A DNA stretch of 64,000 nucleotides from Alphaproteobacteria bacterium (GTDB taxonomy: Bacteria > Pseudomonadota > Alphaproteobacteria > MPNO01): the NCBI GenBank assembly GCA_964291675.2, contig OZ219866.1, positions 896,001-960,000 of the forward strand, given 5' to 3'. The translations under genes were made by a program, and so were the position numbers. The notes below the pieces were generated by a model. That model did no database searches and was not told the origin of the DNA. It was given only the letters and a program-made list of their open reading frames with translations. Below are positions 49,229 to 53,515 of the stretch, one piece after another (the stretch's first letter is position 1; each line of letters opens with the position of its first letter).

Positions 49229-49336
49229 CCCCCGAGGACGCGGGCGCGGATTCGGGCCGAAGCGCGATTTTCCACACTGCCGTTACCGCTTCCGGCAACG
49301 TCTTCAAGCGATACATAGGTCAACCATGTTGACCAT

Positions 49337-49352
49337 TGTTTCACGTGAAACA
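49337..49352. promoter_or_regulatory. parS: parS centromere site
   Basis: Perfect consensus TGTTTCACGTGAAACA. Confidence 0.93.
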
Positions 49353-49373
49353 TTAGGCGCGGTTCCGCCCCGG

Positions 49374-52055
49374 TCAGGCCGCTTGCAGCATGTTGCGGAT
49401 GACGTATTGCAGGATGCCGCCGTGGCGGTAGTACTCGGCCTCGTCGAGCGTGTCGATGCGGCAGGTGAGCGCGATGTCGACCGACGATCCGTCGCCCCGC
49501 ACGATCCGGCAATCGACGTCCATGCGGGGCTCGATGCCCGCCGCGATGCCGGCGATGTCGAAGCTCTCGCTGCCGTCGAGTGCCAGCGTCTTCCGGGTCG
49601 TCCCGGGCTTGAACTCGAGCGGCAGCACGCCCATGCCGACCAGGTTGGAGCGGTGGATGCGCTCGAAGCTCTCGGCGATCACCGCCCGGATGCCGAGCAG
49701 CCTGGTGCCCTTGGCCGCCCAGTCGCGCGACGACCCGGTGCCGTATTCCTTGCCCGCGACCACCACCAGCGGCACCCCGGCCTCGCGGTAGCGCATCGCC
49801 GCCTCGTAGATCGGCTCGGGATCGCCGCCGTCGATATGGCGCGTCATCCCGCCCTCGATCCCCGGCACCATCTCGTTGCGGATGCGGATATTGGCGAAGG
49901 TGCCGCGCATCATGATCTCGTGATTGCCGCGCCGGGAGCCGTATGAGTTGAAAGCCGCCGGGCGCACCTGGCGCTCCAGCAGGTACTCGCCGGCGGGGCT
50001 CTGCCGGGCGATGCTGCCGGCCGGCGAGATGTGGTCGGTGGTCACCGAGTCGCCGAGGATGGCGATCGCCCGCGCACCCTCTATGTCGCCGACCGGGGCG
50101 GGTTCCGGCGTCATGCCCGCGAAGAAGGTGGGATGGCGCACATAGGTGCTCGATTCCTGCCAGTCGAAGGTCTCCGACGGCGTGGACGAGATCTCGCGCC
50201 AGGCGGTGGGCCCCTCCGAGACGTTGGCGTAGCGCGCGCGGAACATCTCCGGCGTGAGCGCGGTCGCCAGGGTATCGGCGATCTCCCGGTTCGACGGCCA
50301 GATGTCCTTCAGATAGACCGGCGCGCCGTCGGCGGTCTCGCCCAGCGGGTCGTTGGCGATGTCGGCCTTGAGCGAGCCGGCGATCGCATAGGCGACTACC
50401 AAAGGCGGCGAGGCGAGGTAGTTGGCGCGCACCTGGGCATGGACGCGCCCCTCGAAATTGCGGTTGCCCGAGAGCACCGCGCCGACCACCAGATCGCCGG
50501 CGTCGACGGCATCGGCCACCGGGCCCGGCAGCGGTCCCGAATTGCCGATGCAGGTGGTGCAGCCATAGCCGACGAGGTTGAAGCCGAGCGCGTCGAGATC
50601 CGCCTGCAGGCCGGCGGCCTCCAGATAGTCGCTCACCACCTGGCTGCCCGGCGCGAGCGAGGTCTTGACCCAGGGCTTTACCCTGAGCCCGAGCGCGCGC
50701 GCCTTGCGGGCGACCAGCCCGGCGCCGACCATCACCGAGGGGTTGGAGGTGTTGGTGCAGCTGGTGATCGCGGCGATCACCACGTGGCCGTCCTCGACCG
50801 CGAAATCGGCGCCCTCGGCCGGTTGCGCGCGGTCCGACCCGCCGAGCTCGGCGAGCGCGGCGCCGAACGCCGTGGCCGCCCGCGAAAGCACAACCTTGTC
50901 CTGCGGCCGCTTGGGGCCGGCGAGAGAGGGCTCGACGGTGCCGAGGTCGAGCGTCAGCAGGTCGGTGAATTCGGGGTCGGGCGAGCCCGCGTCGCGCCAC
51001 AGCCCCTGCGCCCGGGCATAGGCCTCGACCAGAGCGATCTGCTCCTCGTCGCGCCCGGTCAGCCTGAGATAGGCGCAGGTCTCGGCGTCGATCGGGAAGA
51101 AGCCGCAGGTGGCGCCGTATTCCGGCGCCATGTTGGCGATCGTCGCCCGGTCGGCCAGCGTGAGCTCGCCGAGGCCGGGGCCGCAGAACTCGACGAACTT
51201 GCCGACCACGCCGCGCGCGCGCAGCATCTGGGTCACGGTGAGCACCAGGTCGGTCGCCGTCGTCCCCTCGCGCAGCCCGCCCTCGAAGCGGAAGCCGATC
51301 ACCTCGGGCAGCAGCATCGAGATCGGCTGGCCGAGCATCGCCGCCTCCGCCTCGATCCCGCCGACGCCCCAGCCCAGCACCGAGAGGCCGTTGATCATCG
51401 TGGTGTGGCTGTCGGTGCCGACCAGGGTGTCGGGATAGGCCAGCATGCGCCCGCCGTCGTCGCGCGTCCACACGGTCTGGGCGAGGTGTTCGAGATTGAC
51501 CTGGTGGCAGATTCCGGTGCCGGGCGGCACGACGCGGAAATTGCTGAACGCCTTCGAGCCCCAGTGCAGGAAGGAGTAGCGCTCCCGGTTGCGCTCGAAC
51601 TCGCGGTCCACGTTGGCGGCGAAGGCATCGCCCGAGCCGAAGCTGTCGACCATCACCGAGTGGTCGATCACCAGGTCGACGGTGGCCAGCGGGTTAATCC
51701 TCTGCGGATCGCCGCCGAGATCGGCCATCGCCTGGCGCATCGCCGCGAGGTCGACCACCGCGGGCACGCCGGTAAAGTCCTGCAGCAGGGTGCGCGCCGG
51801 GTGGAAGGCGATTTCGTGGGTCGACGAGCGGGTCTCCAGCCAGGCGGCGCAGGCCGCGATATCGGCCGTCGTCACCGTCCGCCCGTCCTCGTGGCGGAGC
51901 AGGTTCTCGAGCAGCACCTTCATCGAATAGGGCAGGCGGGAGACGTCGCCGATCCCGGCCTCGCGCACCGCGTCGAGCGCGTAGTAGTCGTAGCGCCGCC
52001 CGCCCGCCTCGAGCGAACGCCGCGCCTTCAGCCGATCCTGCCCGGAACCGCTCAC
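49374..52055 (-). CDS. acnA: Aconitate hydratase A
   Basis: [33 protein letters not shown] and [10 protein letters not shown]. Confidence 0.98.
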
Positions 52056-52369
52056 TGCCCCGTCCTCCGCGTCAGATCAATCCGATGCCCCGCGCGATGC
52101 ATAGCCTGCCGGCGCCGCCTTGGCGAGGGGTTATTGGTCCGCCGGGAGACGGTCGCACCGGCCGGCCGGGCGCGAGAAATCACAATATTGCCGCATTCCC
52201 GGCTGGCGGCGGCCACAATCCGCCACCATGTATGCTGCATCCTAACCCCTCGGACGCCTGCCCCGGGCGTCCAGCCGGCCGTCAGGCCAAACTCCACGGG
52301 CCGCCGGAGCCTCTCCCGGCGGCCCGTTCTTATGCGCGCCCGGGGCCGCGGTGCTACGATCCGCCGCCC

Positions 52370-53383
52370 ATGTCCACAGCCTGCCGTCCCGTCCCCCGCC
52401 GCGCGCCGGCGGCCGCCGCCCTCGCCCTCGCGATGGCGGCCGGGCAGGCGGGTGCCGATGCCGTCGGCTTCCGCGACATCGAGTTCGAGGCCGACGGCGA
52501 GAACCTGGTGGCCGCGCTGTGGTACCCGACCGGCGCGGCGCCGGGGCGGACGGCGCTCGGTCCGATCTCGATGGAAACGGCCCGGGACGCGCCCCCCGGC
52601 GCCGGGCGCTACGGGCTGGTCCTGATCTCGCACGGCACGGGCGGCGGCCGGCTGAACCATCGCGGCACGGCGATCCGGCTCGCCCGCGCGGGCTATGTGG
52701 CGGTGGCGCCGGAACACGCGGGCGACAGCTGGCGCGACGGCCGGTACAGCGGCACCTCGGCCAACTGGCGCCGCCGGCCGCGCCAGCTAAGCGCGGCGCT
52801 CGACCGGGTCCTGGGGGATGCCGAGTTCGGCCCGCGCATCGACCGTGCGCGCATCGGGGCGCTCGGCCACTCCGCCGGCGGCTACAGCGTGCTCGCGCTG
52901 GCCGGCGCCCGGGCGGATCTGTCGGCGCTGGCCCGGCATTGCACCCGCCGCCGCGACCGGGACCCGGAGTTCTGCGCCTATGGCCGGCGGGACGCGGCGG
53001 CCGGCGGTGCGCTGCCCGATCTGTCGGACCGGCGCGTCCGCGCGGTCGCGGCGGTCGCCCCGGTGGGCGCGCTGTTCGGCGCCGGCTCGTTCGCAGGCGT
53101 GGCGGTTCCGGTCGAGATCCACCGCCTCGGCAAGGACCGCGTGCTGCGCCGGCCCTTCCACGCCGACCACATCGCGCGGCTGATCGGGCGCGGGGTCCGG
53201 CTCGCGGTGCACCCGGGCGCCCATCACTTCGCCTTCATCGCACCCTTTCCCGCCGCCCTGGTCGCCGAGGTCGGGGAACCGGCCCGCGACCCGCCGGGAT
53301 TCGACCGCCGCGCCTTCCTGTCGCGCATCGACCGGCAGATCGTCGCGTTCTTCGACCGCGCCCTGCCGGCGGCGCGAAAGTAG
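52370..53383 (+). CDS. Secreted alpha/beta hydrolase (predicted dienelactone hydrolase-like)
   Basis: LWYPT, LISHGTGG, GHSAGG nucleophile elbow and AHHFAF; start inferred. Confidence 0.82.
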   Translation: MSTACRPVPRRAPAAAALALAMAAGQAGADAVGFRDIEFEADGENLVAALWYPTGAAPGRTALGPISMETARDAPPGAGRYGLVLISHGTGGGRLNHRGTAIRLARAGYVAVAPEHAGDSWRDGRYSGTSANWRRRPRQLSAALDRVLGDAEFGPRIDRARIGALGHSAGGYSVLALAGARADLSALARHCTRRRDRDPEFCAYGRRDAAAGGALPDLSDRRVRAVAAVAPVGALFGAGSFAGVAVPVEIHRLGKDRVLRRPFHADHIARLIGRGVRLAVHPGAHHFAFIAPFPAALVAEVGEPARDPPGFDRRAFLSRIDRQIVAFFDRALPAARK

Positions 53384-53399
53384 TACCGTTTCAGGCTAA

Positions 53400-53415
53400 T
53401 GTTTCACGTGAAACA
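53400..53415. promoter_or_regulatory. parS: parS centromere site
   Basis: Perfect consensus TGTTTCACGTGAAACA. Confidence 0.93.
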
Positions 53416-53515
53416 ATGGTCAGCATTGCTGACCTATTCTGATCGCCGTTCTTCGGGGTTGGGCGGCGGATTTCAAGACATCCGCGAGATGCCGACCTAC
53501 CCACGCCAGCTCCCG

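Follow-up and report, generated by a model that had tools for sequence, protein, structure and literature searches.

A 42-bp parS module beside acnA as the probable core of a genus-restricted alphaproteobacterial repeat

The stretch analysed here, the window, comprises 64,000 nucleotides of the genome of an Alphaproteobacteria bacterium (C2:896001-960000 of a two-contig, 4.81-Mb, 69% G+C assembly, G000). It holds two copies of a 42-bp module built on the centromere site parS. Module A (49315-49356) and module B (53396-53437) are inverted copies of one another, identical at 39 of 42 positions. On the plus strand site A reads ATA, GGTCAACCATGTTGACC (49318-49334), AT, TGTTTCACGTGAAACA (49337-49352) and TTAG, while site B reads CTAA, TGTTTCACGTGAAACA (53400-53415), AT, GGTCAGCATTGCTGACC (53418-53434) and TAT. 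At both sites TGTTTCACGTGAAACA matches canonical parS exactly. Two base pairs from it lies a 17-bp sequence, the 17-mer, which is a near-palindrome in A and a palindrome in B. Their three differences are all within the 17-mer: positions 6 and 12 and the first base of the loop. A preliminary description made from the DNA letters had reported the inverted modules and their composition (perfect parS, 2-bp spacer, 17-bp palindrome); direct reading of both sites confirms these, their coordinates and the three differences. The window contains only these two perfect parS sites and only two exact matches to the 17-mer pattern; with up to three mismatches there are 3 parS matches, against 0.01 expected from shuffled sequence. 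We consider it probable that the module is the conserved core of a genus-restricted repeat that multiplies parS, and that it is in addition constrained where it stands.

The two modules enclose two genes. The aconitase gene acnA (49374..52055, minus strand; Pfam Aconitase) has its stop 21 bp from parS A, and site B lies 16 bp past the stop of an open reading frame (ORF) of 432 aa (52085..53383, plus strand). The name acnA, given at the outset, stands; the label 'hydrolase' attached to the ORF is unconfirmed, since its alpha/beta-hydrolase-like matches are all sub-threshold. Each module belongs to a longer element, present at these positions only in G000 and in its closest relative, the sister species G009. 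Element A (49227..49356, minus strand) is a canonical element of the type called single below. Read in the sense of acnA, it runs CTAA, parS, AT, 17-mer, TA, a decayed second parS arm (49300..49315, minus strand; 10 of 16 positions complementary to parS, plus two G-U), a linker and a degenerate GC palindrome (49227-49239). Element B (53370..53436, plus strand) begins on the gene side with a piece of tail (53370-53399), continues with parS, AT, the 17-mer and TA, and is truncated on the 17-mer side. Its tail piece forms the new last codons and the stop of the 432-aa ORF, whose 3' end has thus been rewritten by the element.

Both modules had been said to border gene remnants. This holds for B, just outside which lies the 3' fragment (last ~53 codons; 53525..53683, plus strand) of a TAXI/NMT1_3 solute-binding gene, marking a deletion or rearrangement endpoint at the module. 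It does not hold for A, which borders the rest of its own repeat and then a 111-bp palindromic repeat (49116..49226; GTCCTTCGATAC ... GTATCGAAGGAC) that abuts element A and is unrelated to it. There are 153 such termini in the genome, and the repeat also stands downstream of acnA in the sister species G010; because of this abundance we assign the 111-bp repeat to a separate family resembling miniature inverted-repeat transposable elements (MITEs) or paired repetitive extragenic palindromes (REPs, REPINs).

Are the two modules a local pair, or members of a family? G000 contains 24 perfect and 4 one-mismatch parS sites. The 17-mer pattern, with up to two mismatches allowed, has 121 matches in this genome, 16 of them exact; all 16 exact matches lie exactly 2 bp from a parS, and none occurs away from one. 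Two one-mismatch 17-mers also stand 2 bp from parS, giving 18 modules, all of them intergenic and five with parS on both sides. The closed genome of G010 has 12 exact 17-mers, every one adjoining parS. When sites were found by parS alone in G000, G009 and G010, the 17-mer was present at 2 bp in 71 of 93 cases and at 0, 1, 3 or 4 bp in none; one spurious match was seen at 28 bp. A fixed spacing beside other parS sites, which had been set as the test of the motif, is therefore found in these three genomes, and the module recurs in 11 of 11 sister species. With 18 modules in G000 and this recurrence, a one-off local duplication in which the symmetric difference between A and B arose by chance is refuted, and we give it practically no credence, even though the symmetric A/T versus G/C difference is indeed due to chance, as discussed below.

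How far does the family extend? With up to two mismatches, the module was found in all 11 other genomes of the genus. It was missing from the 8 genomes that represent other genera of the family and from the 21 that represent other families of the order; the relatives are metagenome-assembled genomes (MAGs) of uneven quality, and neither copies nor species are independent samples. Each of the 12 genus genomes has 23-52 perfect parS sites, against 0-6 in 48 of the 49 genomes from elsewhere in the order. The usual outgroup pattern is a pair of parS sites ~2 kb apart. In G000 the corresponding sites stand on either side of mnmG, beside parAB. No 17-mer accompanies the ancestral parS downstream of mnmG, nor any of the 12 outgroup parS inspected. 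Through the repeat family, perfect parS sites have increased from an ancestral one or two, flanking mnmG beside parAB, to 23-52 distributed over the whole chromosome.

The exception among the 49 is G018 (another genus of the same family, 64% complete), with 16 perfect parS sites inside a different repeat, an independent case of repeat-borne parS. The G018 repeat (loci L177-L191) reads CTGTCCAA-parS-TTGGACAG... and is multi-copy, with many copies at contig ends. A scan of one genome per species gave 80 loci, almost every one in a MAG that bears the title 'Defluviicoccus sp.' or 'Alphaproteobacteria bacterium'. The module had no match in 72,556 plasmid records or in a viral contig collection, and on these grounds we rejected a phage or plasmid origin. 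A second type of double site, conserved in three species, consists of a pair of perfect parS 17 bp apart without the 17-mer palindrome between them (G000 C2:3,555,083-3,555,131; also G009 L145 and G010 L170).

The element has a usual order: (C/T)TAA, a perfect parS, a first spacer, the 17-mer, TA, a second parS, a variable linker and a GC palindrome, GTCCCCNGGGGAC. The 17-mer consensus is GG(T/A)CA(R)C-N3-G(Y)TG(A/T)CC, and the first spacer is 2 bp long (AA, AT, TA and others). We term a module double when its second parS is intact and single when it has decayed. The elements are mosaic, intergenic and 55-300 bp long, with sub-families that differ in linker and tail. Of the 10 GC palindromes in G000, 9 have a parS within 250 bp. 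In tailed single modules the intact parS mostly lies at the end away from the tail (27 versus 2-3), and the usual polarity runs gene, parS, 17-mer, tail. By our crude, GC3-based gene calls, 10 of 22 loci have an intact parS that starts 0-21 bp past a stop codon. We rejected a common theme among the neighbouring genes, as the 80 ORFs near modules are a heterogeneous metabolic set.

One sub-family (G000 C2:~609.1k and ~3117.8k; L024, L040, L049, G010 and others) carries on its 17-mer side a conserved, promoter-like TTGACA-N17-TAGATT, and in the same sub-family (G000 C2:~609.1k, ~3117.8k) a GC hairpin and a T-run follow ~25 nt past it. Together these make up a candidate multi-copy small RNA gene.

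When did the window copies arise? Of 12 species, only G000 and G009 have the element downstream of acnA; the 3' ends of their acnA genes are 97% identical. The element is absent from G010 (94% identical) and from nine further species, where mostly acnA directly abuts the convergent htpG. Downstream of the 432-aa ORF it is likewise confined to G000 and G009, 2 of the 9 species with an alignable orthologous 3' end. Both copies in the window were gained in the lineage of G000 and G009, and the acnA pair arose as a pair in that one lineage. The order and orientation of htpG, acnA and the ORF are the same in G000, G010 and G001, so the pair was gained in place, without inversion. This bears on the idea that A and B delimit a 4-kb inverton or shufflon, a segment that a site-specific recombinase would flip. 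Inverted repeats of at least 42 bp do flank 4.06 kb here, G000 having six such pairs, and resident tyrosine integrases demonstrably use parS as a crossover core (see below). Against this idea, the gene order is unchanged, G000 and G010 are colinear at two other pairs (218k/222k and 1889k/1893k), and no recombinase gene lies in or beside the 4-kb segment; we regard an inverton as very improbable.

Gain also runs in the other direction, for four to five modules of G009 or G010 correspond to empty sites in G000. One comparison of a filled with an empty site defines the element as ~165 bp, bounded by CTAA-parS on one side and by the GC palindrome on the other.

Do the modules accompany rearrangement? 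When the flanks of the parS clusters in G010 were mapped to G000, 10 clusters were colinear, 9 non-colinear, 6 mapped by one flank only and 4 by neither; the corresponding figures for G010 control windows were 31, 2, 3 and 4. Synteny breakpoints are thus enriched at the modules (Fisher p = 0.0009), a contrast that is somewhat overstated because the controls were random windows 40 kb away, not matched intergenic sites. For G009 clusters the counts were 4, 7, 8 and 5. Islands account for part of this non-colinearity. Two islands of G000, of 46.5 kb (C2:3,217,793-3,264,358) and 63 kb (C2:1,568,858-1,632,180), have empty sites in G009. Both are bounded by direct repeats of TAATGTTTCAC, 11 bp within the module, and each carries a gene with Arm-DNA-bind_3 and Phage_integrase domains at the end that retains the complete parS. 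The modules at C2:1632k and C2:3217k thus behave as attB sites of a tyrosine integrase; the window copies carry no island. We conclude that P4-type integrase islands have as their crossover core the half of parS on the stop side, together with TAA. At C1:849,701 there is a third half-parS junction. Of 36 integrase-domain hits in G010, two lie beside modules, one of them with a TTTAA-parS junction. The early suggestion of a recombination site that spreads parS is largely borne out, inasmuch as the module sits at the core of a dispersed repeat, is enriched at breakpoints and supplies in its parS an integrase attachment core.

What of the protein that parS serves? ParA and ParB are intact in G000, their operon lying beside mnmG with parS on either side. 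ParB (C2:869263-870150) has the ParB_N, HTH_ParB and ParB_C domains and retains the GERRWRA motif; its nearest solved structure is Caulobacter ParB, 6T1F (E 2e-61). Since ParB is intact and canonical, we infer that it binds the canonical 16-mer. The window copies are ~75-79 kb from parB. On the closed 5.68-Mb chromosome of G010, 5 of the 28 parS loci fall within 250 kb of parAB-mnmG, 13 are at distances above 1 Mb and 6 above 2 Mb, so that clustering near the origin or parAB does not hold for the family as a whole. GC skew proved too noisy to place the origin and terminus of G000 and was abandoned. Locally, the sites do group: among the 22 parS loci of G000, 8 adjacent gaps are 7.5 kb or shorter, versus 0.78 expected, a number reached in 0 of 20,000 permutations. 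Inverted pairs stand 2-7 kb apart, and in six pairs of G000 the intact parS lies inward. According to the review PMC7333895, known chromosomes carry from 1 to ~23 parS sites, clustered near the origin, and why their number varies and why they cluster there are listed in that source as open questions. In Caulobacter a second parS cluster is described as tolerated only within ~500 kb of the native one, with reduced fitness outside this zone (PMC5815017).

The preliminary description took the differences at positions 6 and 12 for a compensatory pair that preserves the symmetry of the 17-mer. Does the stem covary across the family? We collected 148 modules; 123 remained after removal of duplicates, and 101 of these were oriented (45 double and 56 single), 22 double modules without a recognisable tail being left out of the orientation set. 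Positions 6/12 of the single modules are G/C in 12, G/T in 17, A/T in 17 and A/C in 10, counts that match the expectation for independence; the two positions therefore vary independently. The double modules are G/T in 38 and A/C in 7, with no Watson-Crick combination at all, a pattern from which it follows that the centre is an asymmetric unit present in two orientations. Positions 3/15 of the 101 copies are T/A in 68, A/A in 19, T/T in 6 and otherwise in 8, without a compensated change. A formal count over 89 distinct rows of the 17-mer stem found 0 pairs changed on both sides, and pairing in the stem (91.3%) is below that of shuffles (92.8%), 500 of 500 of which are at least as high. The 53-bp hairpin formed by parS, 17-mer and parS gave no compensatory change in the formal pair count either, and RNAalifold on 27 double elements gave 0 compensatory among 28 predicted pairs. 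With positions 6 and 12 independently polymorphic and no compensatory pair in the family, the symmetric difference between A and B is a chance combination, and the claim of covariation falls. We also rejected a strand-specific G-U excess, parS versus decayed arm (104 versus 77), as too weak and drawn from non-independent copies. A known structured RNA family was discarded too: beyond the 0/28 predicted pairs, Rfam returned no relevant match at E <= 1.

If the stem does not covary, is the 17-mer constrained in another way? Ten of its positions (1, 2, 4, 5, 7, 11, 13, 14, 16 and 17) show little or no variation among the 101 copies. We compared copies in place, using 8 alignments hand-picked, as colinear on both sides, from 25 between G000 and G009 or G010; the other 17 end at breakpoints. 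The ten positions are identical in 78 of 80 comparisons, against 23 of 32 at the four variable 17-mer positions, 16 of 24 in the loop and 22 of 32 in the spacers (61 of 88 for these three together), and 387 of 480 in the 30 bp on either side. Intact parS arms are identical at 160 of 160 positions, a figure inflated because the relatives' sites were found via parS, which guarantees a conserved arm, or more than one, at every locus; no such ascertainment affects the 17-mer figures. The strict 2-bp spacing, kept despite the free sequence of the spacer, also points to constraint. The parS and the ten positions of the 17-mer thus appear to be under purifying selection in place. Selection on the 17-mer, proposed earlier from covariation, finds its support here, in orthologous conservation of 78/80 against ~81% in the flanks.

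What could such selection maintain? The 17-mer may be the stem of a bidirectional intrinsic terminator, with the outer halves of parS (GAAACA / TGTTTC) as its A- and U-tracts, kept for ending transcription of the gene before it. About half of the modules start within ~20 bp of a stop codon, and the spacer after the 17-mer is nearly always TA and then T-rich, even where the second arm has decayed. Both window 17-mers are picked up by a simple, lenient terminator scan (7-bp stems, tail ATTGTTTCAC), and their hairpins fold at -7.7 and -10.1 kcal/mol. These energies are those of weak stems, however, and the scan gives 2 sites against 1.8 expected from shuffles, only in the direction from 17-mer to parS, that is, for incoming transcription. 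Nor does a terminator fit ten base-invariant stem positions with 0 compensatory pairs in 89 distinct copies, or the persistence of copies whose stem is broken at 3/15 (A:A or T:T; 25/101) or at 6/12 (A:C; 17/101), and it leaves a perfect 16-mer parS and the strict 2-bp spacing unexplained. We think this explanation unlikely. The region is represented in one metatranscriptome and two other public runs as short assembled contigs, in which the joints between the two modules derive from other copies of the repeat.

On the other hand, parS / 17-mer / parS might be a selfish hairpin or cruciform, 53 bp in length, recognized by a recombinase or transposase, with the 17-mer as its tip and parS as a passenger. 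The double form is a near-perfect 53-bp palindrome (-56.7 kcal/mol, z = -6.0), and element A retains a long hairpin (-34.9 kcal/mol, z = -4.4). The same view accommodates copies that are gained and lost and mark breakpoints, as well as the asymmetric centre found in both orientations (38 versus 7). It also suits the tandem arrays (parS / 17-mer / parS / 17-mer / parS) that are found upstream of mnmG in several species with a 37-bp period, and the ~300-bp long form of G007, which terminates in a second 17-mer-like inverted repeat. Against it, the Y1 transposase (PF01797) of REP-associated tyrosine transposases (RAYTs) and of IS200-605 elements occurs in 0 of 12 genus genomes, and a REP/RAYT or IS200-605 model was rejected for this reason. 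Neither terminal inverted repeats (TIRs) nor target-site duplications (TSDs) were seen at three filled-versus-empty sites. Tails differ widely within the genome, so that G000 bears no sign of a recent burst. Static orthologous copies, moreover, keep parS and the ten positions far better than spacers, loop and flanks, which is unexpected for a sequence used only at transposition. Like the terminator, the selfish hairpin therefore seems to us an improbable account.

We favour a third reading, in which the 17-mer would be read base by base, as more than a hairpin. Its half-sites are 10 bp apart, centre to centre. A site for a dimeric DNA-binding protein is consistent with the base-specific conservation, the tolerance of unpaired variants, the strict phasing to parS and the fact that the motif never stands alone. 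Such a protein would act beside ParB, for example by phasing or blocking ParB clamps. That the 17-mer is bound in this way is the likeliest of the three readings, if somewhat short of an even chance. A centromere-associated protein as its binder, suggested at the outset, is a conjecture. The ParB paralogues on contig C1 were rejected as its readers, being part of a serine-recombinase / RepB trio of a mobile element. That partition-like trio (C1:204,278-207,485; L099) has a gene for a large serine recombinase and, after it, two RepB/ParB_N genes.

Several points weigh against reading the module as a constrained core of a parS-multiplying repeat. Besides the hand selection of the eight alignments, the inflated parS figure and the unmatched breakpoint controls, the missing Y1 transposase and the lack of visible TIRs or duplications belong here. 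That ParB would load at every copy is deduced from sequence. No candidate protein for the 17-mer was found. As 22 of the 93 parS sites are without a 17-mer, the motif is not required for a parS to persist. The polarity of the element is only a majority rule, module B being reversed with its tail piece on the gene side. Finally, concerted evolution, through gene conversion between copies, could mimic selection in place; it would be expected to homogenise the spacers and the loop as well, and such homogenisation is not seen.

How does this system compare with those already known? It shares the canonical 16-mer parS and a canonical ParA/ParB operon by mnmG with the chromosomal ParABS systems of Caulobacter, Bacillus and Streptomyces, and differs from them in having 23-52 perfect sites chromosome-wide, carried on a repeat and accompanied by a phased partner motif. 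Like REP/REPIN and MITE families, the module repeat is short, palindromic, intergenic and multi-copy, varies in presence between close species and is a recombination hot spot; unlike them, it lacks RAYT/Y1 genes and recognisable TIR/TSD, occupies only ~20-30 loci per genome and has as its core the binding site of a host protein. Composite centromeres of plasmids and phages offer another parallel: P1 parS has a site for a host bending protein between its ParB boxes, and F sopC consists of tandem arrays. Here, too, a ParB-type site stands at fixed spacing from a second motif, and sister species have tandem arrays with the 37-bp period; the module is, in contrast, chromosomal and dispersed, and its second motif matches no known protein. 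The two islands, with their integrase genes and the 11-bp direct repeat in the module, resemble P4-type integrase insertions, whose attB usually lies at the 3' end of a tRNA gene, whereas the target here is half a parS plus TAA. A full-text literature search, whose coverage did not extend to Livny et al. 2007, returned no parS in dispersed repeats, no partner palindrome and no parS used as attB. This is a known site, parS, in a new genomic mode.

At its most far-reaching, and with considerable doubt on our part, the chromosome might be polycentric, with 25-50 ParB loading sites provided by a domesticated parS repeat. The 17-bp dyad would then bind a second protein that blocks or orients ParB-CTP (cytidine triphosphate) clamps; the inverted pairs, with parS inward and the dyad outward, would be insulated ParB domains of 2-7 kb; and the copies would serve as landing pads for islands and joints for rearrangement. 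Be that as it may, dozens of perfect parS sites with a phased partner motif are tolerated chromosome-wide, and seemingly conserved, throughout a genus of uncultured Alphaproteobacteria. The genus offers a natural system for asking how ParB, SMC loading and segregation deal with centromeres scattered in many copies, whether the spreading of ParB is restricted by a second factor, and how a repeat amplifies the binding site of a host protein, in a setting where parS is also targeted by integrases and drives genome rearrangement.

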